A stretch of DNA of 46,729 bases from a virus, in the IMG/VR virus record IMGVR_UViG_3300010283_000004, positions 1 through 46,729 of that record. One strand, 5' to 3'. Positions within the stretch are counted from its first letter, which is position 1. Each line of letters opens with the position of its first letter. The position numbers were made by a program, and so were the translations under genes. This document shows positions 298 to 21,385 of the stretch, in pieces. Below the pieces are notes generated by a model. That model did not search any database. It had not been told where the DNA came from and was given only the letters and a program-made list of their open reading frames with translations.

Positions 298-1572
298 TTA
301 TTTTTGAACCGCCTTTTCAAAGATTTCTACTGATTGATTTCTCAGGTAGTCGGTATTGTGGGTATATGTATTAAGTGTTGTTTCTATGTTGCAGTGTCCT
401 AAACGCTCCTGCACGTCCTTTATATTGGCACCGTTCTCAATAAGCGTTGTAGCATGTGTGTGCCTCAGTGAATGGTAGTTGAAATTTATCTTCAGCTCAT
501 AGTGGATTGCACGGCTGCAGTACTTCATGCTGTCCATGCTCAGCATCTGGCCGTTCTCTCTTACGTTAATCATATCCACGGACTCAAGAGGGCAGGGAAC
601 TCCGGCTTCAATTTCTATGAGCCGGTAAATGGTATCGCCCTTCTCGTCCTGCTCCGGCTTTTTGTAGATTTTTGTGTAGTATTCGTCATAGAAGGCTTTG
701 TTGGCCATTTGCCGGTCGTAAGCTTTTTTCAATGCAGCACAGAGGGTATCACCGATATTGATGATGCGGTTGGACTTGAAAGTTTTTGTGCTGTTGAAAT
801 ACCAGGCGCTTTTCTCTTCCTTCTTGCCCTTCTTCTTCAGAACTTCCCTTACATCTGCGCCACAGTTGCGCTTAAGCAAAGCCTTGCTGATATTTATGGT
901 CTGATTATCAAAATCGACATCATTCCAAGTAAGGCCAAAGCATTCGGAAATTCTTACGCCGGTATAGTAGCCGATCATAAGCGGAATATAAAAATTAGAG
1001 CCTTCCGGAAAGCGCTCTATAATCTGCTTAAACTGCTCCGGTGTAATGATGTACCGGGTTTCCTTCTTGGGTGCCGTATCCTTGGGGATTCTTACGTTAT
1101 TGCATGGATTATATTGGATGTACTTCAACGGCTCAACAGCATAATCCAGCGCTGCAGAGAGCGTGGAGAAGATACCGACGATGCTTGCCCTGCTGAGGCC
1201 GCGCAGCTTCAGAGAATTTACGAATTCCTGAACGGCGGAAGGGGTGAGGGCTTTTAACCGGTACATTCCTAGGCTGGGCTTCAGGTGATTTTCGATAGTA
1301 TAAAGATAGCCAAGCTGGGTATTATATTTGAGGTTCATTTTGCAGTAAGTATCAATCCAACTGTCCAGATAATCCGCAACGGAAATGCTGGAAAGATTGA
1401 AAGTCTGACCGCTTTCGTTGTATTCTGCCAGCGCCCTGGTTCCGACTTCCACGGCTTCCTTTTTCGTTTTAAAGCCGGATTTGGAAACACGCTTACGCTT
1501 GCCATCGACGGAAGCAGCTTCGAAACGGTACTGCCATTTATCGCCGCGTTTTGTTACGTTTAATGTTGACAT
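298..1572 (-). CDS. int: Tyrosine recombinase (phage integrase)
   Basis: 424 aa. The C-terminus HSLRHTHATTLIENGANIKDVQERLGHCNIETTLNTYTH carries the H-x-x-R ... H ... Y catalytic signature. The N-terminus KRGDKWQYRF...GFKTKKEA resembles an arm-type DNA-binding domain. An SD (aaggag) precedes the ATG. Confidence 0.95.
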   Translation of the reverse strand: MSTLNVTKRGDKWQYRFEAASVDGKRKRVSKSGFKTKKEAVEVGTRALAEYNESGQTFNLSSISVADYLDSWIDTYCKMNLKYNTQLGYLYTIENHLKPSLGMYRLKALTPSAVQEFVNSLKLRGLSRASIVGIFSTLSAALDYAVEPLKYIQYNPCNNVRIPKDTAPKKETRYIITPEQFKQIIERFPEGSNFYIPLMIGYYTGVRISECFGLTWNDVDFDNQTINISKALLKRNCGADVREVLKKKGKKEEKSAWYFNSTKTFKSNRIINIGDTLCAALKKAYDRQMANKAFYDEYYTKIYKKPEQDEKGDTIYRLIEIEAGVPCPLESVDMINVRENGQMLSMDSMKYCSRAIHYELKINFNYHSLRHTHATTLIENGANIKDVQERLGHCNIETTLNTYTHNTDYLRNQSVEIFEKAVQK

Positions 1573-2981: not shown

Positions 2982-3040
2982 TTTATAACTACTTTCTTCC
3001 CCACCGTCAGCATCCAGCTGGCGGTATTTTTTATTTTTTA
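2982..3040. repeat. Cassette-boundary repeat copy 1 (tttataact...accgtcagc-loop-gctggcggt-T run)
   Basis: Hairpin 3003..3025 with the same 9-bp stem as copy 2, followed by a T-run on the plus strand. It sits just upstream (minus sense) of the 335-aa gene RBS. Confidence 0.7.
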
Positions 3041-3846
3041 GGTTTATCAAGCTGCTTGATACTTTCGCTTGGCGTAGGCAATTTCTCTGGCATTGTGCCG
3101 CCGAGTTCTTCAATAGTTTTGCGAACGGTACGACCGACTTCGTAATGCACTTTGTTGGCAGCTTCTTTGCTACTGATATTCTCACGGCGCAGTTTGTCTT
3201 CTGCCTGAGTGATGCGGAACAGGTTCGCACCGAGTTCCACACTGCCCATGTGGTCTAAAATCTCTTGATTAGGTTTAAGCTTCTTGCGACGTTTTATATC
3301 GCCAGCGGTTTCACCGCCATAAAGTCCCATGTAACCGCTATTTTGGAATTTGGCGAAGTCAAGGTTCGTTTTTACGCCTGCGGCAAAGGCTGCATCAGCG
3401 AGAGCAACGTTATGCTGTTTGATATTATTTCGTGCTTCAATGCGAGCGTCTATTTCCTTGTTGAAAGCCTCTGCTGCTTCAAGGTCATGGATATGGTCCG
3501 CACCGAGTTGCGCGAGCCACTGCTTGAATGGTTCGGCTTTAGGCGAGGGGATAGATTGGATAATACGCAGAATACCTTCTGTATTTGCGGTGTCAGTGAG
3601 ACGCATTTTCCCATCTTCTGCAAGCAATTTCAACCTGTGACAATTTGTCACGGTTTCATTACCTTCTGCCTTCAGTCTTTGCTTTAGCTTGCGCCAATAA
3701 GCTGATTTATCCGCGCTGTCGGTCAATGCACCGACAACATCGACAACAGAAAAGAACCATTCTCCGGCTTCATCGTTCCAAATGGAGCGAATTTGCGCAC
3801 TCTGAAACAATTTTACATCTTTCATGTCTTCATTCCTCGCTTTCAT
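3031..3846 (-). CDS. dinD: DNA-damage-inducible protein D homologue (BRO-N-like N-terminus plus DinD C-terminal domain)
   Basis: FAKFQNSGYMGLYGG...RKKLKPNQEILDHMGSVELGANLFRITQAEDKLRR...VGRTVRKTIEELGGTMPEKLPTPSESIKQL is nearly collinear with E. coli DinD as I recall it. A better SD (gagga) precedes the internal ATG at 3825, so the true start may be Met8. Confidence 0.85.
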   Translation of the reverse strand: MKARNEDMKDVKLFQSAQIRSIWNDEAGEWFFSVVDVVGALTDSADKSAYWRKLKQRLKAEGNETVTNCHRLKLLAEDGKMRLTDTANTEGILRIIQSIPSPKAEPFKQWLAQLGADHIHDLEAAEAFNKEIDARIEARNNIKQHNVALADAAFAAGVKTNLDFAKFQNSGYMGLYGGETAGDIKRRKKLKPNQEILDHMGSVELGANLFRITQAEDKLRRENISSKEAANKVHYEVGRTVRKTIEELGGTMPEKLPTPSESIKQLDKPKK

Positions 3847-5106: not shown

Positions 5107-5111
5107 TTGTG

Positions 5112-5124
5112 ACACGTATCGTGA
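5112..5124. promoter_or_regulatory. Fourth operator-like palindrome (acacgtatcgtga)
   Basis: 12 of 13 positions match the TCACG-N3-CGTGA consensus. It lies directly after the cro-like stop codon. Confidence 0.5.
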
Positions 5125-5144
5125 CAACAAAAAGGGGGCGCGAA

Positions 5145-5915
5145 ATGAATAACTTGCAAATTTTTAAAAGTCCTGACTTTGGGCAGGTTCGTACCATTCA
5201 GCAAAATGGAGAGCCGTGGTTTATCGGCAAGGACGTGGCAGAGATTTTGGGATACAAAAAGCCTGAAAATGCTATCGCTGTTCATGTTGATGATGAAGAT
5301 AAAACCACTACCCTAATTCAGGGGACTGGTTCTAATTATAAAAGTAATGCTGTCATCATCAACGAAAGCGGTCTTTACTCTCTCATCCTCTTCAGCAAGA
5401 TGCCCAAAGCAAAGGAATTCAAGCGCTGGGTGACAAGCGAAGTCATTCCGGCAATCAGAAAGACCGGAAAGTACGAAGCTATGGCGCAGGCGGTTCCTAT
5501 CAACGATGAGCCTGTCACGGACTTCACGCAGCTGGAATTTGACCAGCGCATACGCATTGCAGCCATCATCGCAAGCTGCCGCCGCGAACGCCTGCCTCTG
5601 GTGGCGAAGGTGCTTTCCATCGACCTTGAGGAAATGATGCCGCTGATGCCGGCGCATATTACTGAGGCAGAGCAGGCCGCGTACCGGTACATCTCCAGCG
5701 TGTATGACTCGCTGGAACGTGACACGCCGATTCAGTACTTTTACACCGCTTATACAAAATGGTGCATGGAACAGAGCCTGCTGCCGTTGACGAAACACGG
5801 TGTCACAAAGGTTTTAAAAAAATACTTTCCGGTGCAGACCGTTGCCACGTCATATTATGAAAACGGCACCCGCGTGATGGGGTGCTGCAGGTGTTATCGG
5901 AAGATGGGGAGGTGA
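5145..5915 (+). CDS. BRO-N domain antirepressor-type protein
   Basis: MNNLQIFKSPDFGQVRTIQQNGEPWFIGKDVAEILGY...SGLYSLILFSKMPKAKEFKRWVTSEVIP is a BRO-N/KilA-N-like N-terminus. The start was moved to the ATG at 5145, which has SD aaaggggg. Confidence 0.8.
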   Translation: MNNLQIFKSPDFGQVRTIQQNGEPWFIGKDVAEILGYKKPENAIAVHVDDEDKTTTLIQGTGSNYKSNAVIINESGLYSLILFSKMPKAKEFKRWVTSEVIPAIRKTGKYEAMAQAVPINDEPVTDFTQLEFDQRIRIAAIIASCRRERLPLVAKVLSIDLEEMMPLMPAHITEAEQAAYRYISSVYDSLERDTPIQYFYTAYTKWCMEQSLLPLTKHGVTKVLKKYFPVQTVATSYYENGTRVMGCCRCYRKMGR

Positions 5916-13075: not shown

Positions 13076-13583
13076 GCAATACCTGATGTTGAATCTGGAG
13101 TCTGACACCTTTAAGGGCATGAAGGCCGATTTTAATGAACTTCTGCAGCAGCTTCTGGAGAAGCTTTTTGCTGGCCGTATTGCTGATGGCTCTATCAGCA
13201 TGAAGCTGTCCGTCAGCTTGACTGAGACCTATTCTGAAACAATGGGTAAGGACATTGCAGTGCCGCTGTTCAAGCACAAGGTTACCGCCAACTACACGGA
13301 GAAGCTGGAGAATGCCGGTGCTGTTTCCCTGCCTAACACGTATCTGGAATATGATCCGGAAATCGGCGCTTTTGTCCTGAAGCCCTGTGGCGGGGAGCAG
13401 GATATGTTCGCAGAGCAAGAGGCTGATGCTGATGAAGTAACTGTCGACGTTAAAGCCATTCCGCAGGATTGCCACCGTCCCCTGCAGCTGCGTGATCCGC
13501 TGTGCAATGACTGCGCTAATCGCGACACCAGCGCCTGCGACCATTGCGATGGCTGCGATAAGTGGGAGCCGACGGTAAAATGA
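13068..13583 (+). CDS. Hypothetical protein with a Cys-rich C-terminus
   Basis: 171 aa from the ATG at 13068 with SD ggaggga. The C-terminus is CNDCANRDTSACDHCDGCDKW. ATGA coupling to the helicase gene. Confidence 0.6.
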   Translation: MNKQYLMLNLESDTFKGMKADFNELLQQLLEKLFAGRIADGSISMKLSVSLTETYSETMGKDIAVPLFKHKVTANYTEKLENAGAVSLPNTYLEYDPEIGAFVLKPCGGEQDMFAEQEADADEVTVDVKAIPQDCHRPLQLRDPLCNDCANRDTSACDHCDGCDKWEPTVK

Positions 13584-14986
13584 TACCGCTGCGTCCCTAC
13601 CAGCAGGAGCTGGTGGATAATATCCGCAGGGCAATCGGTCAGGGGCGGCACAGCGTGTGTGCAGTGTTGGGCTGCGGCGGTGGAAAGTCCGTTATCCAGG
13701 GCAACATCGCCGCCAGCGCCACGGCACGCGGCAACAGGGTGCTGTTCATCGTGCACCGCAAAGAGCTGTGCCAGCAGATTACCAATACTTTTGCTGCATG
13801 CGGCGTAGACTTCTCTTTCTGCACCGTAGGCATGGTGCAGACGGTCTGTCGCAGGTTGGCAAAGACTCAGGAGCCGAAGCTGATTCTGGTTGACGAAGCG
13901 CACCACATCCTGTCGCAGAGCTATCTGTCTATCCTGCAGCATTTTCCGGGAGCTGTAGTCTTAGGCTTTACCGCCACGCCGCAAAGAATGAACGAGGGCG
14001 GTCTGGGGGCCGTCTTTGAAGAGCTCATCGAGTCAGTGAGCACCGAGTGGCTCATCCAGAACCATTATCTGGCACCGTACAAATACTACGGCGTGCAGCT
14101 GGCGGATGCCAGCAAGCTGCATACTAAACGCGGCGACTACGACAAGGCTGAAATTGAAGCTCTTATGAATAAGCGTGCCATCTTTGGCAGTGCTGTTGAG
14201 AACTGGCTGCAGCTGGCTAAGGGCAAGCAGACCATCGTGTATTGTTCGTCTATCGCCACCAGCGAGGGCACAGCAGCCGCTTTCAGGGAGCAGGGAATAA
14301 ATGCCATGCACCTTGACGGTACAACGCCACAGGCGCAAAGACAGGCCGCCGTAGAGGGGTTCAGACGCGGTGAGGTCACGGTGCTTTGCAACGTTGATTT
14401 GTTTGGCGAGGGCTTTGACGTACCTGACTGTGATTGCGTGGTGCTGATGCGGCCTACCAAGTCGCTCACGCTGCACATACAGCAGTCGATGAGGTCGATG
14501 CGTACCAATCCCAACAATCCGGATAAGGTCGCGCTGATCCTGGACCATGTTGGCAATTTCACGCGGCATGGTCTGCCGGATGATGTGAGGGAATGGTCTT
14601 TGGAAGCAAAAGCCAAGAAGAAAAAGCAGGAGCTCAGTGTTAAGCAGTGCCCGAACTGTTTCGCGGTGGTCAAGTCCAGCGTAACCGAGTGCCCTCTCTG
14701 TCATTACGTGTGGGAAAAAGAAGAACGCGAAGGTCCGGAAGTCGTGGAGGACATCATTCTGCAGGAAGTTGCGCGAATGCCATACAGCAAACACATAGAG
14801 TGTAAGTCATGGGCGCAGCTGGAACTGTTCCGTGCGACGCACAGACGTGCCGATGGCAAGATTTTTAAGTTCGCCTGGTCGCTGCACAAGGCGGTGGAGC
14901 TGGGGCTGGCAGTACCGGAACGGTACCGCAATGCAGCTATCCGCCTGCTGCGTCAGGATGAATACAGGAGGTTAAAATTTGAATAA
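13580..14986 (+). CDS. SF2 DEAD/DEAH-box helicase with a C-terminal zinc ribbon
   Basis: LRPYQQELV, Walker A GCGGGKS, motif II LVDEAHH, and CPNCF...CPLCH. Confidence 0.85.
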   Translation: MIPLRPYQQELVDNIRRAIGQGRHSVCAVLGCGGGKSVIQGNIAASATARGNRVLFIVHRKELCQQITNTFAACGVDFSFCTVGMVQTVCRRLAKTQEPKLILVDEAHHILSQSYLSILQHFPGAVVLGFTATPQRMNEGGLGAVFEELIESVSTEWLIQNHYLAPYKYYGVQLADASKLHTKRGDYDKAEIEALMNKRAIFGSAVENWLQLAKGKQTIVYCSSIATSEGTAAAFREQGINAMHLDGTTPQAQRQAAVEGFRRGEVTVLCNVDLFGEGFDVPDCDCVVLMRPTKSLTLHIQQSMRSMRTNPNNPDKVALILDHVGNFTRHGLPDDVREWSLEAKAKKKKQELSVKQCPNCFAVVKSSVTECPLCHYVWEKEEREGPEVVEDIILQEVARMPYSKHIECKSWAQLELFRATHRRADGKIFKFAWSLHKAVELGLAVPERYRNAAIRLLRQDEYRRLKFE

Positions 14987-15410
14987 ATCGGAAACTCGAA
15001 TTATGAAAGAAATAGAAATCGCAGTGACGGCAGCAGGTCATAAGGTTTTCCGCATTAATGTTGGAGAAGGATATTTATACCGTGAGCAGCCGACGCAGGA
15101 AACGTTGGAATTTGAGAATAAGCGCGCCCGCTGGTTCAAGAGCGGACCGCCGCAAGGCTACAGTGATTTGTCTGGCGTAGCGTATCCGTCGGGCAAGGCA
15201 ATCTTTATCGAGTGCAAGACGGCAACCGGCAAGCCGACGCTGCAGCAGTGCGTGTTCCTGCTGGCGATGTTGGCAGCGGGTGCCAATGCCGGTATCGCAC
15301 GCAGCTCCGAGGAGGCGTTGGCGATTTGTGAGATGACGGACGACCTGCGTCAGAAGATGGGGGAGTATATCCATGGCTGGTTGGTTAAGCTTAGGCAGCG
15401 TGGTAAGTGA
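14979..15410 (+). CDS. VRR-NUC domain nuclease
   Basis: YSDLSG...AIFIECKTATGKPTLQQ matches the PD-(D/E)xK VRR-NUC pattern. TTG start 8 nt after SD aggagg. Confidence 0.7.
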   Translation: MNKSETRIMKEIEIAVTAAGHKVFRINVGEGYLYREQPTQETLEFENKRARWFKSGPPQGYSDLSGVAYPSGKAIFIECKTATGKPTLQQCVFLLAMLAAGANAGIARSSEEALAICEMTDDLRQKMGEYIHGWLVKLRQRGK

Positions 15411-15690
15411 TCCGTGGCCTGATTATGCCGACAGCGAGTTCTGGGGGCAGCTGCTACCAAGTGCTGCCCGCCATGATCACAAGCTGTATGTTAAGCTCAT
15501 AGGTCTGCGCTTTGCCGGAGCAGAGCTGCTGCCTAGTGCACGCTTCGGCCTGCGTCTGGTCATGGCTAACGAGGCGACGGTGACTCAGCAGGAGGCGAGG
15601 GAGCTGCTCGCTCCCCACTCTGAGCTGTTACTGAATTTATTTTTACACATAGGAGGTGGCGCAGGTGGACAACAAAAAACTGATACATGA
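15373..15690 (+). CDS. Hypothetical protein
   Basis: 105-aa ORF filling the gap between VRR-NUC and the regulator. The start is unclear. Confidence 0.4.
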   Translation: MAGWLSLGSVVSDPWPDYADSEFWGQLLPSAARHDHKLYVKLIGLRFAGAELLPSARFGLRLVMANEATVTQQEARELLAPHSELLLNLFLHIGGGAGGQQKTDT

Positions 15691-16177
15691 TACTGTTGTG
15701 GCAACGCTGGCTGCCTTAAATAGCCAGCCTAAGCCGCAGGACTGCTACAAGGCGACAGAGGCTCGCTTGTATGCGTATCCTGTTTTGCTTGAGAATATAA
15801 AACGTTATAAATTAGACATTCGTGATCTGAAGAAAGAGAAGAACACTGAGAAGTCTAAGGACATTACCTGTTGGGGCGGTGCTTCTGGTATCCGTCTCAC
15901 GCCTGAAGAAAAGCAGGCAGCGAAAATAATGGCTGTAGAGATAAAACTTGAACGCGATACGGCAGAAGTTAATCGCATTAATAAAGCGCTGCTACGTTTG
16001 GAACGCATGAATAGTGAAGAAGATGTGGCTTTTATAAAGAGGCTGTATTTTCAGGGGCTTGAGATTGCTGGGCTGGCTGAGTTTATGGGAGAATCGCTGG
16101 CTACTATTCAGCGCAGGCGTACGCGCCTGGTGCGGCAGCTGGCGTTAATGTTATATGGAGCGGAGGCGTTGATGTAA
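15656..16177 (+). CDS. Sigma-70 region-4-like phage transcriptional activator (ArpU/RinA-type late regulator candidate)
   Basis: C-terminal HTH FIKRLYFQGLEIAGLAEFMGESLATIQRRRTRLVRQL. SD aggaggtgg is present. The likely start is the GTG at 15656 or 15665. Confidence 0.6.
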   Translation: MAQVDNKKLIHDTVVATLAALNSQPKPQDCYKATEARLYAYPVLLENIKRYKLDIRDLKKEKNTEKSKDITCWGGASGIRLTPEEKQAAKIMAVEIKLERDTAEVNRINKALLRLERMNSEEDVAFIKRLYFQGLEIAGLAEFMGESLATIQRRRTRLVRQLALMLYGAEALM

Positions 16178-16416
16178 TGACAATTCTTGAACGTAAACGT
16201 ATATTACAAACGAAAATCACTTGCAAGACTAGCCGCATCTGCCCGCGTCAGCGGAAGTGGGCAAAACTTAGAGTGGTACAAAAATCCACGGTTCCGGGAC
16301 CTAGTTTCCTTTCAAAATTAATCCGCAAGCACCGCGAAGTTGTATTACTTCACAGCGCTCGTGGCTACTGTCAAGTTTTTGCTTATTGCGTAACGGAGGT
16401 GACGCCGATATTATGA
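16177..16416 (+). CDS. Doubtful ORF (very basic, Cys/Arg/Lys-rich 79 aa); the region may be non-coding
   Basis: It is the only open frame across this interval, but its composition looks non-protein-like and no SD is visible. Confidence 0.2.
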   Translation: MTILERKRILQTKITCKTSRICPRQRKWAKLRVVQKSTVPGPSFLSKLIRKHREVVLLHSARGYCQVFAYCVTEVTPIL

Positions 16417-16643
16417 TTAATTTGTATCCTGTAATTGCTGAAAAATTGCATGTCCCTGTTGGCAAAGCGTTTAAGCTCAAGCCGAAGCATGGTGGAGCGT
16501 ATCCGGCACAGTACCGTTTTATCGCTGATGATTTGGAGTACCGTCCAAGCCAGTGCTGCCATTGGTCAAGTATAGGTAATCAGTCTATGCAGATGCGTAT
16601 TTTTCTGGCTTTGCTGCGTGGCGGTGTGGAGGTTGTAGAATGA
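16413..16643 (+). CDS. Hypothetical protein
   Basis: 76 aa from the ATG at 16413, with ggaggtg upstream. Confidence 0.5.
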   Translation: MINLYPVIAEKLHVPVGKAFKLKPKHGGAYPAQYRFIADDLEYRPSQCCHWSSIGNQSMQMRIFLALLRGGVEVVE

Positions 16644-16936
16644 ATAAATATCAAGAATATATTTTGAGCGTGTTGAATGACCACGAACTGCTGGAACAGC
16701 TGGCCGAAGAGGCTGCTGAGCTGTCACAGGCAGCATTGAAGCTTATCCGTGCAAGTGGATATAGTAACAATCCTACGCCAGTCACTGAGCAGGAAGCAGA
16801 AGCCAACCTTGAGGAAGAGCTGCATGATGTTTTAGCTGTCGCCAGTCTGCTTGCATTCATTGATTATAACGACGATGAAAATCCTAAATGGAAACGCTGG
16901 GCAGAACGGTTAGGCATGAAGGTGGAAAAGGAGTAA
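16640..16936 (+). CDS. MazG-like nucleotide pyrophosphohydrolase family protein
   Basis: LAEEAAELSQAALK ... LEEELHDVLAVASLL matches the paired EExxE / ExxD helices of all-alpha NTP-PPases. Confidence 0.5.
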   Translation: MNKYQEYILSVLNDHELLEQLAEEAAELSQAALKLIRASGYSNNPTPVTEQEAEANLEEELHDVLAVASLLAFIDYNDDENPKWKRWAERLGMKVEKE

Positions 16937-16940
16937 AGGC

Positions 16941-17264
16941 ATGGAGTGGAATGAAGAATTAGAGAAAAAACTGAAACGCCATGGCGAATTCTGGCACGCG
17001 GAAAATCTTGCATCGAGTATTATATTCGACGGCCGTCGCGCGCTTGAACACTATACTGCCGATGAAATGCGTACGAAATTTGAGCCTATAGCAAAGCAGT
17101 ACAGAGAAAGCGGGCGCTTTATCAACTGTCTGGCATCTGATGCCTTGGTGATGTACTGCAAGGAGCAGGGCTATAAATGGGAGTGGTACCCACCTAGCCC
17201 GTTGGGCGAGTATTGGTTTGTGCTGCCCAAAGAGGAATTGTTTCAGGAGGGTTATTATGATTGA
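16941..17264 (+). CDS. Hypothetical protein
   Basis: 107 aa with SD aaaaggag. Confidence 0.6.
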   Translation: MEWNEELEKKLKRHGEFWHAENLASSIIFDGRRALEHYTADEMRTKFEPIAKQYRESGRFINCLASDALVMYCKEQGYKWEWYPPSPLGEYWFVLPKEELFQEGYYD

Positions 17265-17571
17265 ATCTAAAGAATTTGCATTGTTTATTGCTAACGAGCT
17301 TGAACGCGTAGGTGATTTATTCGAAGAAAAACATCAGCAGTATTCTGCTGGTGATGATCCGCTGTCAAACTTCCGCACCGGCGCGCTGCTGGAGCATCGT
17401 GATGGCAGCTACGAGAAGATGTACGAGGTGGCTAAGGGTTATCTGAATAAGCATATCGCTTTCATTTATGACCATGGTATCGTTAACAAAACGGAGGAAT
17501 CCTTGCGCGACATGGTGATCTATGGTCTGATTATGTTGTACATAGTTAAGAATAATCAGGAGCTTGAGTAG
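17257..17571 (+). CDS. Hypothetical protein (possibly DUF1599-like)
   Basis: 104 aa from the ATG at 17257 with SD ggaggg. The EKHQQYSAGDDPLSNFR ... LNKHIAF pattern is only weakly reminiscent of DUF1599. Confidence 0.55.
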   Translation: MIESKEFALFIANELERVGDLFEEKHQQYSAGDDPLSNFRTGALLEHRDGSYEKMYEVAKGYLNKHIAFIYDHGIVNKTEESLRDMVIYGLIMLYIVKNNQELE

Positions 17572-17588
17572 GCGAAGGAGTGAGCTTG

Positions 17589-17888
17589 ATGAGCAGTAAA
17601 CGTAAACTTAAGCGCCGCAATCCTGCGCCGGTGGCAGGCTTTAAATACGAGCGCATGTGTCAGACGGTGTCCGAACAGGCAATTTATCATGTGCTTGCTG
17701 TTGCGATTGATATCCTCTGGAATAACTTTGGTGGCCTGCAGCCTAAACATACACGTCTGAAGTTCTTCGCTGAGACGCTTCGTGAACGGCTTGAAGTTGT
17801 TGACCAAGGATTTACGCCGTCGCAGCAGGCAGCTATGGATGAGCTGCAGCGTCAGGCTGGGTATAGCGTGATTTGCAATCCGAAGTAA
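17589..17888 (+). CDS. Hypothetical protein
   Basis: 99 aa from the ATG at 17589 with SD gaaggag. It is the last gene before a strong terminator. Confidence 0.55.
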   Translation: MSSKRKLKRRNPAPVAGFKYERMCQTVSEQAIYHVLAVAIDILWNNFGGLQPKHTRLKFFAETLRERLEVVDQGFTPSQQAAMDELQRQAGYSVICNPK

Positions 17889-17922
17889 AAAAACGCGGTA
17901 AAAAGCAGGATTTTTTATTTCT

Positions 17923-17966
17923 CAGGTAGAATAAGATAAATATCTTATTCTACCTGTATTTTTTAT
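17923..17966 (+). terminator. Rho-independent terminator ending the early/middle operon
   Basis: 16-bp perfect stem caggtagaataagata / tatcttattctacctg (17923..17956) followed by tattttttat. Confidence 0.85.
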
Positions 17967-17970
17967 GGTG

Positions 17971-17999
17971 TTGACGAATCAGGATAATGATTGTACAAT
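17971..17999 (+). promoter_or_regulatory. Promoter of the three-gene island (TTGACG, 17 bp spacer, TACAAT)
   Basis: ttgacg at 17971..17976 and tacaat at 17994..17999 with a 17-bp spacer. It lies directly after the terminator. Confidence 0.65.
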
Positions 18000-18047
18000 A
18001 TAACAAGTTATAGCTAAATATAGCAAGATATAGGACGTGGTATACTT

Positions 18048-18563
18048 ATGGTTAACATCAAGGGCTTTCATGGCACGTTGGACGAAAAAGCTAATAAAAT
18101 TTTAAATAGCAGATTTATCCATAGCAGTAAAAATAGTGAGTGGCTTGGTTCTGGTGTATACTTCTTTGCAAAGAGACAAGATGCTGAATGGTGGGCAGAC
18201 TTAGAAACTGATAAACGAAAGAATCAAGGGTCTTTGCCAGCAGTTTTGTCAGCCGATATTATCACTGAAGATGAATTTTTCTATGATTTGGATTTTGGCT
18301 TCAATATGAATAAGATGATAGAAGAATCAAGAGATCTTCTAGAAGGTCTAAAAGGAAATCTTAATATGAATGAAGCAGAGATGAGATGTGTTGCATGTAA
18401 TTTTTTTGCTAAATTGTATGGAATAAAAGTATTTGCTTATACATTTCCATCTATAGCTCGAAATGAAATAGGGTTTCCGTACACAAGAAAACAACGGCAA
18501 ATTTGCGTGAATGATGATGATTGTATAAAAAATATACAAAAAGTTAAGGAAAGGGGTGGCTGA
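18048..18563 (+). CDS. Putative toxin: 171-aa protein with an H-Y-type ADP-ribosyltransferase-like N-terminal motif (DUF3990-like?)
   Basis: GFHGT(8-10)...WLGSGVYFFAKRQDAEWWA parallels YHGT...GFY of diphtheria toxin/exotoxin A and HGS...GxGxYF of PARPs. The third catalytic residue could not be identified by eye. It is the first gene of the AT-rich island. Confidence 0.45.
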   Translation: MVNIKGFHGTLDEKANKILNSRFIHSSKNSEWLGSGVYFFAKRQDAEWWADLETDKRKNQGSLPAVLSADIITEDEFFYDLDFGFNMNKMIEESRDLLEGLKGNLNMNEAEMRCVACNFFAKLYGIKVFAYTFPSIARNEIGFPYTRKQRQICVNDDDCIKNIQKVKERGG

Positions 18564-18565
18564 TT

Positions 18566-18805
18566 ATGTCTTACTCTAAAAAAGAATTGTTGTTCATAGA
18601 AGTTCTAAAAGAGATGGGTTTAGATTTTAAAGAAGGACCTGGAAGAATTACTATCGAGGGTGTTCCTGCTGCACAGTATCTTGATGAACACGATATTTTT
18701 GCAGTACCTGAAGAAGTATTTATTCAAGTAGGTTTTTCTGCTGAAGAAGAATATCAAGACGAGTTGTTTGATGGTTGTGAGAATAACTTGCGAAACGCAG
18801 CTTAG
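18566..18805 (+). CDS. Small acidic protein, putative antitoxin
   Basis: 79 aa, rich in D/E, with SD aaaggggtgg. It starts 2 nt after the upstream stop. Its middle position matches the toxin-antitoxin-chaperone gene order. Confidence 0.45.
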   Translation: MSYSKKELLFIEVLKEMGLDFKEGPGRITIEGVPAAQYLDEHDIFAVPEEVFIQVGFSAEEEYQDELFDGCENNLRNAA

Positions 18806-18816
18806 AAGGTGAGAAA

Positions 18817-19218
18817 ATGGAAATACGAGGAAATAGTCAAAGTGCCTTGCGCTTAAAAAATATATTTTTCCAAGATATTCATATGGAAAACAGTGGTAAA
18901 AAAACTAAAAATGTTGATGATGCACAAGCAGGATTCAGATTAGAGAAGCCGATCATTGACGAAAAATCTTTAAAAGTAGGTTTGCGGTGCAAAGTAGAGA
19001 TTGAAGGAGTTTTATATCTTCAACTATTGTTGATTGGTGAATTTGAAGGAGAAAATGAAGAGTTTCTAAAGCGTATGGTTCCTAATGCCATTGCTATAAT
19101 TTTCCCATATATGCGTAGTCAAGTTACACTGATGACAGCGCAGCCGAACTTGCCGCCGATTGTTCTTCCTCCGATCAATATCAACTCATTATTAAAAACT
19201 GACCAGATAAAATTCTAA
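18817..19218 (+). CDS. SecB-like chaperone
   Basis: LRLKNIFFQDIHME aligns with SecB FQIQRIYTKDISFE. VPNAIAIIFPYMRSQVTLMTAQPNLPPIVLPPININSLL aligns with SecB [36 protein letters not shown]. Confidence 0.8.
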   Translation: MEIRGNSQSALRLKNIFFQDIHMENSGKKTKNVDDAQAGFRLEKPIIDEKSLKVGLRCKVEIEGVLYLQLLLIGEFEGENEEFLKRMVPNAIAIIFPYMRSQVTLMTAQPNLPPIVLPPININSLLKTDQIKF

Positions 19219-19233
19219 AACAATAATTTACTC

Positions 19234-19270
19234 GACCGTTCCGTTTTGGAGCGGTCTAATTTTTCTTTAA
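19234..19270 (+). terminator. Rho-independent terminator closing the three-gene island
   Basis: Stem gaccgttcc / ggagcggtc (one G-U pair) followed by taatttttcttt. Confidence 0.7.
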
Positions 19271-19272
19271 AA

Positions 19273-19326
19273 TTCACAAAGAGTTCACAAAGGCGTGAGA
19301 AAAAGCGGTGATTTTTATGGTATAAT
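19273..19326 (+). promoter_or_regulatory. tRNA promoter: extended -10 TGgTATAAT (19318..19326), preceded by two ttcacaaag direct repeats
   Basis: ttcacaaag at 19273..19281 and 19284..19292 (11-bp phasing). tggtataat lies about 50 nt upstream of the tRNA 5' end. Confidence 0.5.
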
Positions 19327-19377
19327 AAAAACCGTGGAGAAGTGTCGATAAAATTCGATGCTCCTTTTGTTTTTTAT

Positions 19378-19468
19378 GCTGTCGTACTCAAGTCTGGTTT
19401 AAGAGGCCGCTTTTCATAAGCGGTAGGCGGATAATCTCCGTGCGTGGGTTCGTATCCCACCGGCAGCA
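19378..19468 (+). tRNA. Class II (long variable arm, Ser/Leu-like) tRNA with anticodon UCA: putative opal (UGA) suppressor
   Basis: Hand fold. Acceptor gctgtcg/cggcagc (7 bp). D arm ctc-aagtctggtttaa-gag, very like Bacillus tRNA-Ser. Anticodon stem ccgct/agcgg with loop tt-TCA-ta (anticodon at 19414..19416). 5-bp variable stem. T arm gtggg-ttcgtat-cccac. Discriminator A, and CCA is not encoded. U37 and U58 are atypical. Confidence 0.6.
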
Positions 19469-19480
19469 CCTGTTTATGTA

Positions 19481-19510
19481 GCGTCTGGCTTTTAGCCAGG
19501 CGCTTTTTTT
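19481..19510 (+). terminator. Rho-independent terminator directly after the tRNA
   Basis: gcgtctggc / gccaggcgc stem with a 5-nt loop and a T7 run (19504..19510). Confidence 0.8.
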
Positions 19511-19615
19511 ATGCCCGGAAGCCGCAACCTAAGGGACGGGACATCCCTTATTATTCTCAAATCCTCAGCGGTAGTCCGGGCACCAAACTTGCGAATATTT
19601 ACAAGGAGTGTTACC

Positions 19616-20605
19616 ATGTATATAAGCCCATTGATTATGGCAGCGCGCATCTTAGATGCTGCTTATACCAAAGATCCGAATCCTGAAAATTGGCGTACAA
19701 TCAGTGGTGCAAAAGTGCATCTTGATGGTAATGGTGACATCGATGGTGGTGCTGGTGGAAAGTTTACAGGGGAGAGTTTTACTGGTAAGAGCAGTAAAGC
19801 TGAGAATTATTCAGCTTCAGCTAGTTATGGCACTCAAACAGTACCACAGAATTCAGTGGAGGGTGTACTTCCCAAGAAGAAGTCATCGTTACGACAGGCG
19901 GCAAAAGTTTTTACAGAAGCGGAGACGGTTGGGTTAAGTAGTTTATCTAAAGCGTCAGACTATTGCCGTAATCTTGTACAATATGCTAAGGACAATAATG
20001 TTACGTCAGTTAAAGTTAGTAGACTAAAAAAGCCGTTAAAGGAAAAAGAGATTATTGCTCGAATTGCTGGTGGCGACGAGACCCAGGGCTCTTGTGCTTC
20101 TTTAGCCCTTGCTTATATTGCTAATAAATGTGGCCTTGATGTTTTGGATTTTCGTGGTGGTGAAAGTCAACAAATGTTTTCAGATCTTTTCAATTTAGTT
20201 CGGATAGGACGTTTTTCTGGTGTGGAAGAGGTGAAGGGCTTAACTTCATTGTCAGATTTTGAAAGCTTATCGGGATTCCTTGCTAATTTAGAAATGAATA
20301 AAGAATATTTTTTCAGTACTGGTGCTCATGCGGCGATTGTAAAAAGGACAAAAAGAGGATTTTGTTATCTAGAATTACAAAGTCCTGACAAGAGGGACAA
20401 TGGCTGGAAATGTCGGGGTTCTGATCCTAGAAGTATAACTAATGCGCTACTTTGGCGGTTTGGTTGCCGTCCTGAAAGACCAGGGTTTTCAGTTATGTTT
20501 TCTGTGGATTCTTGTAAAAATAGTAAGGAATTTGAGCATATAACTCAATATTTTAATACAAACGCAGAATCTCAGCAGAAGGGAGCGAATGGCAGTGTCA
20601 AATGA
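19616..20605 (+). CDS. Candidate virion-delivered effector (polyvalent-protein-like N-terminal linker plus a Cys/His papain-like-looking C-terminal domain)
   Basis: Start moved to the ATG at 19616 with SD aaggag, because the ORF-track start at 19511 lies inside the tRNA terminator. The N-terminus is NPENWRTISGAKVHLDGNGDIDGGAGGKF. The candidate nucleophile is ETQGSCASLALAY, followed by STGAHAAIV. Confidence 0.65.
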   Translation: MYISPLIMAARILDAAYTKDPNPENWRTISGAKVHLDGNGDIDGGAGGKFTGESFTGKSSKAENYSASASYGTQTVPQNSVEGVLPKKKSSLRQAAKVFTEAETVGLSSLSKASDYCRNLVQYAKDNNVTSVKVSRLKKPLKEKEIIARIAGGDETQGSCASLALAYIANKCGLDVLDFRGGESQQMFSDLFNLVRIGRFSGVEEVKGLTSLSDFESLSGFLANLEMNKEYFFSTGAHAAIVKRTKRGFCYLELQSPDKRDNGWKCRGSDPRSITNALLWRFGCRPERPGFSVMFSVDSCKNSKEFEHITQYFNTNAESQQKGANGSVK

Positions 20606-20828
20606 TAATATTTGGTATAAGAGGAATCCTTCTGACACCGTTTGGTGGCAGGACAATGGTCGTATAGGTGTCATGATTTTTAGTTTCGACCGCATAATCG
20701 AATACAATTTATTTCAAGATTACCCATGGAAATTATCCGCAGAGCAGAAAGCTGTGTTTGACAGAGAGAATCCTTTTTGGGCTAATTTCTTTGCTTCCCG
20801 TAGTGAAAGTCAGAACAATGGAAAATAA
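20589..20828 (+). CDS. Small Trp-rich protein, possible cognate immunity/partner of the upstream effector
   Basis: 79 aa with SD aagggag. It overlaps the upstream gene by 17 nt. Confidence 0.55.
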   Translation: MAVSNDNIWYKRNPSDTVWWQDNGRIGVMIFSFDRIIEYNLFQDYPWKLSAEQKAVFDRENPFWANFFASRSESQNNGK

Positions 20829-20976
20829 ATCCTCTGGTGGCGCATGTCGTGGCGCAGGTCGTCCGAAGCTGCCGCCTGAACTTAAATCAAAGCGCAAGCA
20901 TTACAACTGGTACGTCACGGAAGAAGAGCGTACGTTCCTGCTGGAGCAACTTGCTGGATATCGAAAAAATCACTAA
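20818..20976 (+). CDS. Small ribbon-helix-helix-like protein
   Basis: 52 aa from the ATG at 20818. GRPKLPPELKSKRKHYNWYVTEEERTFLLEQLA fits a beta-strand followed by a helix, as in RHH/CopG-type proteins. Confidence 0.4.
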   Translation: MENKSSGGACRGAGRPKLPPELKSKRKHYNWYVTEEERTFLLEQLAGYRKNH

Positions 20977-20981
20977 CGTAA

Positions 20982-21014
20982 CCCTCGAGCTTAACGGCTC
21001 GGGGGTTTTTATTT
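20982..21014 (+). terminator. Rho-independent terminator before the packaging genes
   Basis: ccctcgagc / gctcggggg stem followed by tttttatttt. Confidence 0.7.
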
Positions 21015-21040
21015 TGCAAGAATAGAGGTGGTGTATATGA

Positions 21041-21385
21041 ATGCCTAGAGGAGATAATCCGAATAGTAGGAAAGCATTAGCTGAAAATAGAGCAAAAACA
21101 CAGTTTCGCGGTGAAAGCGCGGTGAGAGCCGCAGAAAAATCTAATGAGAAGCGTCGTAAGCTGCGTACATTCCGTGAGCTTGACGAAGACTTTACCAGTG
21201 ATAAAGAGCGCCTCGATATGCTTGAAGCACTTAAAGCAAAGGTTAAGCAGGGGAATGTTAAGGCGTTTGAAGTATATCGTGACACCATGGGAATGAATCC
21301 GAAAGAGTCTGCTGGACAGACTCAATATGAGGATGATGGCTTTACCGATGCAATCAAACGCAGTGCAGGGGAGGTTTGGAAATGA
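21041..21385 (+). CDS. terS: Terminase small subunit
   Basis: 114 aa. The N-terminus PRGDNPNSRKALAENRAK is typical of small terminases. ATGA-coupled to the large subunit gene. Confidence 0.7.
   Translation: MPRGDNPNSRKALAENRAKTQFRGESAVRAAEKSNEKRRKLRTFRELDEDFTSDKERLDMLEALKAKVKQGNVKAFEVYRDTMGMNPKESAGQTQYEDDGFTDAIKRSAGEVWK

Follow-up and report, generated by a model that had tools for sequence, protein, structure and literature searches.

A CmdTAC-like toxin-antitoxin-chaperone cassette in a cargo hotspot of a temperate gut-Firmicute phage

The virus record IMGVR_UViG_3300010283_000004 of IMG/VR, a stretch of 46,729 nucleotides that we refer to as the window, carries a 1.3 kb cassette of three small genes, here called A, B and C (Table 1). 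All three lie on the plus strand and are tightly packed, with gaps of 2 nt between A and B and 11 nt between B and C. An original prediction, made from the nucleotide letters and their open reading frames (ORFs), had placed genes of 171, 79 and 133 aa here, behind a terminator followed by a TTGACG-17-TACAAT promoter and ahead of a second terminator, and had read them as a toxin, an antitoxin and a SecB-like chaperone, the layout of a toxin-antitoxin-chaperone (TAC) system. The genes and the flanking elements were all confirmed at the predicted positions, and the TAC layout is supported by the comparisons described below. The further claim that a phage-borne TAC with this type of toxin would be undescribed was wrong. 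The defence-system models of PADLOC point to PD-T4-9, an anti-phage system of Escherichia coli since renamed CmdTAC (PMC9519451), which is prophage-borne in that organism. By sequence comparison, the window cassette is a distant, divergent relative of this characterised system and not an undescribed kind of system.

Table 1. Features of the cassette and its surroundings in the window.
Feature	Position	Strand	Basis or remark
Inserted AT-rich cassette (moron)	17889..19230	.	Between 102-aa gene ending at 17888 and resident terminator
Intrinsic terminator that came with the cassette	17923..17966	+	15-bp stem, 4-nt loop, T tract; missing in empty-site phages
Sigma-70-type promoter, TTGACG-17-TACAAT	17971..17999	+	48 nt 5' of gene A start; predicted
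Gene A, predicted CmdT-like ADP-ribosyltransferase toxin, 171 aa	18048..18563	+	PADLOC, hhalign, AlphaFold2 and Foldseek
Gene B, putative CmdA-like antitoxin/adaptor, 79 aa	18566..18805	+	Position, size, acidity, -AA end
Gene C, CmdC-like SecB-family chaperone, 133 aa	18817..19218	+	Pfam, PADLOC, BLASTP, structure-chain profile
Resident intrinsic terminator	19234..19270	+	Hairpin and T tract; aligns with terminator after upstream gene in L048 and L049
tRNA gene, anticodon UCA (reads UGA), long variable arm	19378..19468	+	ARAGORN tRNA-SeC; Rfam tRNA 45.9 bits, E 4e-8

Gene A had been expected to encode a protein of the ADP-ribosyltransferase (ART) fold and not a HigB, MqsR or HicA RNase, and structural modelling bears this out. 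Its AlphaFold2 (AF2) model has a pLDDT of 91.6 and a pTM of 0.86. Compared by Foldseek with structures in the Protein Data Bank (PDB), the model found PARP2, NatT, PARP1, exotoxin A and diphtheria toxin, with E-values of 1e-3 to 1e-2, probabilities of 0.95-1.0 and TM scores of 0.41-0.50, as well as PARP3, and among the viral models of BFVD it found ART-PolyVal domains with E-values down to 1.5e-6. The modelled fold is that of the H-Y-E, or diphtheria toxin/exotoxin A/PARP, class of ARTs. Searched as a sequence, gene A gave chance-level matches only against PDB chains, and no Pfam family was matched at E up to 1, DarT and other ART models included. The PADLOC model PD-T4-9_A is matched by residues 10-56 (E 1.8e-4, 19.7 bits); 19 of the 20 members of the A family match it as well, with a best E of 7.9e-8, and it is the sole meaningful defence model matched.

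The relationship to the E. coli toxin CmdT emerges from comparison of families. With 20 sequences in the A family and 40 in the CmdT family, profile-profile alignment by hhalign gave a probability of 97.2% and an E of 3.6e-11 over 78 N-terminal columns. In a joint MAFFT alignment of 23 sequences drawn from both families, H8, W32, L33, G36, Y38, A46, W49, F133 and Q151 (gene A numbering) are invariant and F39, D80, L81, C153 and V154 nearly so, and the families have in common a C-terminal [RK]-Q-x-C-V motif. H8, Y38 and Q151 would form the catalytic triad of gene A. In the annotated N2250 protein of E. coli, the counterpart of Y38 is Y43, which is Y41 of the published work because the construct used there begins at a GTG two codons downstream. 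The family is large: an exhaustive profile search returned 2613 cluster representatives with E no higher than 0.001, of which 936 reach 1e-10 or better, and related toxin genes were found in Flavonifractor, Faecalibacterium and Lachnospiraceae genomes.

Gene C was predicted to be SecB-like from conserved FPY..R and L.PvNf signatures, and the motifs FPYxR and LPxxN are present where its family aligns with solved SecB chains. The protein passes the Pfam SecB gathering score (26.9 vs 26 bits), matches PADLOC PD-T4-9_C with an E of 4.5e-14 and is 29% identical to E. coli CmdC across 97 aa by BLASTP (E 9e-8). Gene C alone is marginal against the PDB (E 0.08); a profile of its family, built from 31 sequences, matches SecB chains near full length (1fx3, E 5e-11; 1qyn, E 5e-9). 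A housekeeping SecB was considered and rejected, as TIGR00809 gives 24.9 bits where 102.8 are required, the remaining SecB equivalog models also fall far short, and the gene sits inside phage cargo.

The middle protein is the most elusive of the three. Gene B is acidic, as foreseen, with a net charge of -12, and it ends in NAA. No significant family match was found in four libraries, where the MutL_C model of Pfam appeared sub-threshold only. Two alignments of gene B compared with CmdA by hhalign gave a probability of 0.3%, jackhmmer started from gene B over all fetched ORFs converged on close kin alone and did not reach CmdA, and a large-database search returned just close kin of at least 72% identity. 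As the alignment is correspondingly shallow, the AF2 model is of low confidence throughout, with a helix at 5-17 and a pLDDT below 50 over nearly all of 40-79. The C-terminal half carries the aromatic residues F45, F52, F57, Y63 and F68. We propose that residues of about 1-52 bind the toxin and that the tail, about 53-79, serves as a chaperone-addiction element and degron. The model is compatible with these two modules, at a confidence too low for proof.

What is known of CmdTAC comes from E. coli ECOR22 and O112ab:H26 (Vassallo et al. 2022, PMC9519451; Vassallo, Doering and Laub 2024, PMC11618068; Mets et al. 2024, bioRxiv 10.1101/2024.02.24.581848). It is a TAC abortive-infection system with an ADP-ribosyltransferase as its toxin (PMC9519451, PMC11618068). 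CmdT bears an H-Y-[E,D,Q] triad, its fold was likened to the diphtheria toxin/exotoxin A/PARP class, and the Y41A substitution abolishes defence (PMC11618068). Alone, CmdT is non-toxic and needs CmdA to fold and accumulate; CmdT and CmdA together are toxic (PMC11445053, PMC11618068). The original prediction was thus unsound in taking a non-toxic gene A, expressed alone, as refutation of its model, since the published CmdT behaves in just this way. CmdA has a C-terminal LAA, which ClpXP recognises, and its degradation is ClpP-dependent unless CmdC is present (PMC11618068). The major capsid protein of T4 strips CmdC from the complex, and free CmdT then ADP-ribosylates the N6 of adenine in GA of single-stranded RNA, upon which translation stops (PMC11618068). 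The E. coli system is encoded by a prophage, and its modularity was demonstrated with a CmdTA-HigC hybrid (bioRxiv 10.1101/2024.02.24.581848). A P2 hotspot was already reported as a site of PD-T4-9.

An E. coli cmdTAC locus for comparison was obtained from complete E. coli genomes, the query being 60 nt reconstructed from the published primer CD22. In N2250, the three proteins have 192, 77 and 129 aa, and their genes lie inside a P2-like prophage with replication endonuclease (gpA) and DinI-like genes on one side and portal and terminase genes on the other. The window resembles this locus in its order of toxin, antitoxin and chaperone, its tight spacing and its protein sizes (171, 79 and 133 aa). 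Both have a diphtheria-toxin-class ART with an H-Y-Q triad, as far as alignment and modelling can place it in gene A, a small middle protein with an -AA end and a SecB-like third protein, and both are prophage cargo at a hotspot with replication genes on one side and packaging genes on the other. They differ in that the window toxin is about 19% identical to CmdT, with confident alignment in the 78 N-terminal columns only, the sequences of antitoxin and CmdA show no detectable similarity, chaperone and CmdC share 29% identity, and the putative degron is NAA in place of LAA. The host also differs, being a gut Firmicute (Clostridia or Negativicutes) and not an enterobacterium. Under the discoverers' definition the window locus is a CmdTAC homologue; they found CmdA too variable for calling homologues, and thus homology to CmdA is not defining (PMC9519451). 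The PADLOC models likewise place A with PD-T4-9_A and C with PD-T4-9_C, and no other model of that library was hit.

Other known systems resemble the cassette in part. With the classical TACs, namely HigB1-HigA1-SecB-like of Mycobacterium tuberculosis (Rv1955-57), MqsRAC and HigBAC of E. coli, it shares a SecB-like gene beside a toxin-antitoxin pair and a modular organisation, in which chaperone and antitoxin tail appear exchangeable as one unit; the antitoxin may also carry a disordered C-terminal chaperone-addiction tail, as predicted here. Unlike those systems, the window has as its toxin a predicted ADP-ribosyltransferase and not a HigB, MqsR or HicA RNase, and gene B has no antitoxin DNA-binding domain recognisable to Pfam. 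DarTG also uses a toxin of the ART fold for abortive infection. DarT acts on DNA, and a macrodomain enzyme counteracts it. The window has no Pfam ART-family match or macrodomain and has a chaperone instead; DarTG was rejected as an identification because neither DarT (DUF4433) nor the macrodomain was matched in Pfam and PADLOC gave no DarTG match. A RES-like toxin was set aside as well, no profile match supporting it. The cassette further resembles the cargo of defence hotspots in P2-like prophages and phage morons, which are likewise promoter-genes-terminator units of deviant composition at sites that are empty or differently loaded in sister phages. The window phage is of another lineage, the nearest cultured relative of its portal protein being that of Agathobaculum phage AB434P2, at 49% identity.

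Genome, viral and metagenome collections were scanned for loci of the A and CmdT families, which gave 115 distinct toxins, 80 of them with enough downstream sequence to be assessed. The predicted linkage of gene A homologues to SecB-like genes was found in 60 of the 80 (75%), which have a SecB-like ORF within 900 nt downstream, and 87 of the 88 SecB-profile matches in all fetched DNA occupy this downstream position. A small middle ORF, with a median of 83 aa, is present in 59 loci. These middle proteins are extremely variable in sequence otherwise, and 49 of the 59 end in -AA, compared with 4% of all ORFs of 60-140 aa. The arrangement of toxin, middle ORF and chaperone is conserved from Clostridia to Proteobacteria. 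Toxin loci lacking the SecB-like gene (L016, L021, L027, L094, L096, L098 and 14 more, under the L numbers that we use for loci and relatives throughout) are in some cases followed by ORFs of 280-410 aa, and the ART family of gene A may, on this sequence evidence, take part in non-TAC partnerships as well.

Among close relatives, the cassette is seen to vary by parts. L034 is a natural mosaic: against the window it is 91% identical in residues 1-45 of gene A and 46% in 46-171, 46% in residues 1-52 of gene B and 89% in 53-79, and 99% in gene C, which puts recombination breakpoints near residue 45 of A and residue 52 of B. The latter is consistent with the engineered CmdTA-HigC hybrid. Compared with window positions 18180..18740, L034, L157, L158 and L033 have toxin cores that are 46-56% identical and chaperones that are 98-99% identical. 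The toxin core is the fastest-diverging part of the cassette, spanning 46-90% identity among phages with a 98-99% identical chaperone. Across 11 systems, taken as 55 pairs that are not phylogenetically independent, identity in the A core tracks that in B 1-52 (r 0.84) better than that in the B tail (r 0.46), and identity in gene C goes more closely with the B tail (r 0.92) than with B 1-52 (r 0.68). Toxin core and antitoxin N-terminal half thus seem to behave as one exchangeable unit. This fits a gene B of two modules, in which the N-terminal half would be the partner of the toxin and the tail a chaperone-addiction and degron element held by C. Swaps of the toxin core against a constant chaperone are a modest new point of this analysis.

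The cassette was predicted to be acquired cargo, AT-richer than its flanks. The GC content is indeed 0.32-0.36 across 18000..19400 and 0.44-0.59 on either side, and vacant sites in related phages give the prediction direct support. Sister phages about 90% identical to the window in the flanks fall into three classes at this site. L030-L035 bear the cassette. The site is empty in L049, L051 and L052, where window position 17888 abuts 19222 directly, and in L048 and L054, where about 45 nt bridge window positions 17869 and 19251. Other cargo is found in the remainder, consisting of a ribbon-helix-helix (RHH) protein, a Bro-N (antirepressor-like) protein and a 93-aa ORF in L053/L046 and of one 94-aa ORF with no assigned function in L055. 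The site, which corresponds to window 17889..19470, is thus, from these alignments, a variable cargo hotspot of the phage. To our knowledge, the hotspot of this phage group has not been catalogued so far. A megablast of 17000..20500 against GenBank phages gave no match. The cassette is also found in non-prophage chromosomal settings (L001, L004, L159 and L161); in L001, DNA identity of 68% is confined to 17992..19197, which extends from the -10 region as far as the end of gene C. An ISL3 transposase comes after gene C in L155. The window phage itself has two Bro-N paralogues, at 3031..3846 (-) and 5109..5915 (+), and the L053/L046 cargo has about 70% DNA identity to the second (window 5354..5914), which suggests that this cargo was derived by duplication or exchange inside the phage group.

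Which elements came with the cassette can be read from the empty sites. There, the hairpin equivalent to 19234..19256 directly follows the 102-aa gene, so the second terminator is resident; to judge from the alignments, the first terminator, the promoter and the three genes arrived jointly. The resident terminator would end the transcript of the 102-aa gene in insert-free relatives and that of the cassette in the window. The predicted insulation of the island is supported, with a 5' terminator and a promoter that belong to the cassette and a second terminator that belongs to the phage. Both hairpins are strong: the folding energies are -20.7 kcal/mol (z -6.7) for 17923..17956 and -16.3 kcal/mol (z -5.4) for 19234..19256, values that no shuffle out of 200 equalled in either case. 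The first terminator shields the cassette from upstream phage transcription. The promoter call is less direct. TTGACG-17-TACAAT has 10 of 12 consensus matches and is joint best within the 4 kb scanned; sites of this kind show no overall enrichment in that region (11 against 8.9 expected), so the call depends on the score of this one and on where it lies, between terminator and operon. The nucleotide similarity of L001 starts within its -10 region. Activity of this promoter in the phage is inferred.

The carrier is, by its gene content, a temperate, tailed phage. An integrase is encoded at 298..1572 (-); upstream of the block lie genes for a primase/helicase, a helicase, a sigma-like regulator and a MazG-like protein, and downstream those for the large terminase, portal, head protease, major head protein, tail chaperone and tape measure. 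A near-identical cassette-bearing prophage was found in an assembly of Phascolarctobacterium succinatutens. This prophage, the Agathobaculum portal and the toxins of Flavonifractor, Faecalibacterium and Lachnospiraceae together indicate a gut Firmicute, of the Clostridia or Negativicutes, as host. A contig labelled as an E. coli metagenome bin (L009, CAVCLW010000018.1) is about 80-90% identical over 13549..18429 and was probably mis-binned, given that every other relative comes from gut Firmicutes.

We therefore think it likely that the cassette is a TAC system of the CmdTAC family, carried as an independently transcribed moron by a temperate gut-Firmicute phage and acting by analogy with the E. 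coli system. Of its membership in CmdTAC by the discoverers' criteria we are surer than of this reading as a whole, and of the exact substrate of the toxin less sure, because the toxin core is very diverged. In the lysogen, the A, B and C proteins would be held as an inactive complex. Here, the N-terminal half of B would aid A in folding and neutralise it, and a tetramer of C would hold the disordered tail of B and shield it from ClpXP. Upon infection, an abundant structural protein of the incoming phage would titrate C, and B would then be degraded via its C-terminal -AA degron. The freed A would ADP-ribosylate single-stranded RNA (mRNA), with translation blocked and the infection aborted as a result. 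The gain for the carrier phage would be the exclusion of competing phages from its lysogen.

Several observations weigh against this interpretation. The match of gene A to the PADLOC model is weak, its 19.7 bits extending over 50 of 187 profile positions, and that found by hhalign is confined to the N-terminal 78 columns. By pairwise BLASTP, gene A and CmdT are 30% identical across just 47 residues, their overall identity is about 19%, and the C-terminal half is tied to CmdT solely through the short RQxCV motif of the MAFFT alignment. BLASTP detected nothing between gene B and CmdA, and the AF2 model of gene B has a pLDDT of 54. Some 25% of the more distant A-family loci have no SecB-like neighbour, so the toxin fold is not exclusive to TAC systems. 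Moreover, the substrate, the trigger, the protease dependence and the anti-phage activity would all be carried over from a Gram-negative system. Such divergence would also suit a toxin that works within the same TAC architecture on another target, be it DNA (as for DarT), structured RNA or protein. The low identity to CmdT, the C-terminal two thirds that hhalign leaves unaligned and a core that diverges fastest (46-90% identity beside chaperones of 98-99%) could all be taken in this sense, as could structural neighbours that include ARTs acting on protein, NAD+ and nucleic acid. Against this, H8, W32, Y38, F39, W49, F133 and Q151 are common to both families, neither DarT nor any other ART model of Pfam is matched, and PD-T4-9_A, with 19 of 20 members, is the sole meaningful defence model. 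We hold a different target to be unlikely.

The same components might also serve an end other than defence. Post-segregational killing is built from just such parts, a stable toxin paired with a labile antitoxin whose end is degron-like, and in a temperate phage with an integrase they could form what is chiefly an addiction or stabilisation module that punishes prophage loss. That this is the main role seems to us improbable, as protection against phage was seen with each of the two CmdTAC systems tested and with two further TAC systems (PMC9519451, bioRxiv 10.1101/2024.02.24.581848), the site is a variable cargo hotspot with many close relatives that do without the cassette, and the same cassette occurs in non-prophage chromosomal contexts (L001, L004, L159, L161). 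Defence and addiction are not mutually exclusive. Least probable of all, to the point that we give it hardly any credence, is that gene A is a host-takeover ADP-ribosyltransferase like Alt, ModA or ModB of T4, which the phage would use in its own lytic growth, B and C helping it to fold. ARTs are indeed encoded by phages, and the BFVD neighbours of gene A are phage ART-PolyVal domains. A takeover enzyme would, however, be at odds with terminators that insulate the cassette from phage transcription and with a predicted sigma-70-type promoter of its own; in addition, the cassette is dispensable in close relatives, its three genes are found together in plain chromosomal contexts, and the family match is to a host-defence toxin.

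As a CmdTAC relative, the cassette would extend the experimentally characterised defence by mRNA ADP-ribosylation to temperate phages that infect anaerobic gut Firmicutes, and it defines a cargo hotspot in a group of these phages. Standard defence finders, coverage-filtered ones included, may under-call the clade, the toxin match being weak and covering about a quarter of the model. Our understanding of how TAC systems work is not changed by these results; their value lies in the annotation, the hotspot and the swap variants, which are a ready set of natural variants for separating the phage-sensing part of a TAC from its killing part. A bolder and more doubtful proposal, which we offer tentatively, is that the Firmicute-phage clade is a functionally distinct CmdTAC variant in which toxin core and antitoxin N-terminal half have been exchanged and the tail and chaperone sensor kept. 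If true, this would be natural evidence that the effector and sensor modules of TAC systems are shuffled independently, with anti-toxin counter-defence or cross-immunity as a possible driver, and the diverged toxin core might prefer a substrate other than the GA-adenine of E. coli CmdT.

Downstream of the cassette lies the tRNA gene with a UCA anticodon (Table 1). A promoter-like tatggtataat precedes it near 19318..19335, and a terminator follows at 19480..19504. Its acceptor stem of 7 bp resembles that of an ordinary type II tRNA and not that of a true selenocysteine tRNA, and it may be an opal suppressor. L034 and the empty-site phage L048 have this gene too; L030, L032, L033, L049, L051, L053-L055 and L155 lack it. 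As this distribution is independent of cassette presence, the tRNA is a separate variable element; a tie to the cassette was rejected on the same grounds, the gene occurring at an empty site and missing from several cassette-bearing phages. Recoding of TGA was rejected too, since TGA is the commonest stop of the long plus-strand ORFs and read-through yields no sensible fusions. Three TGAs lie between the tail-chaperone and tape-measure ORFs.

Beyond the tRNA, the first 35 or so codons of a 364-aa ORF (19511..20605) overlap two terminator-like hairpins within 19471..19616. Sister phages keep this segment upstream of quite unlike genes, such as the ParB-N6 DNA methylase of L055, which nominally has this N-terminus in common with the 364-aa ORF. 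The segment is probably a conserved non-coding leader, with the real start of the ORF at the ATG at 19617. Between this leader and the small and large terminase genes there is a second variable stretch, 19766..21317 in comparison with L047-L055, where the 364-aa head-morphogenesis-like gene is replaced by other genes in sister phages and the inserts differ in length.

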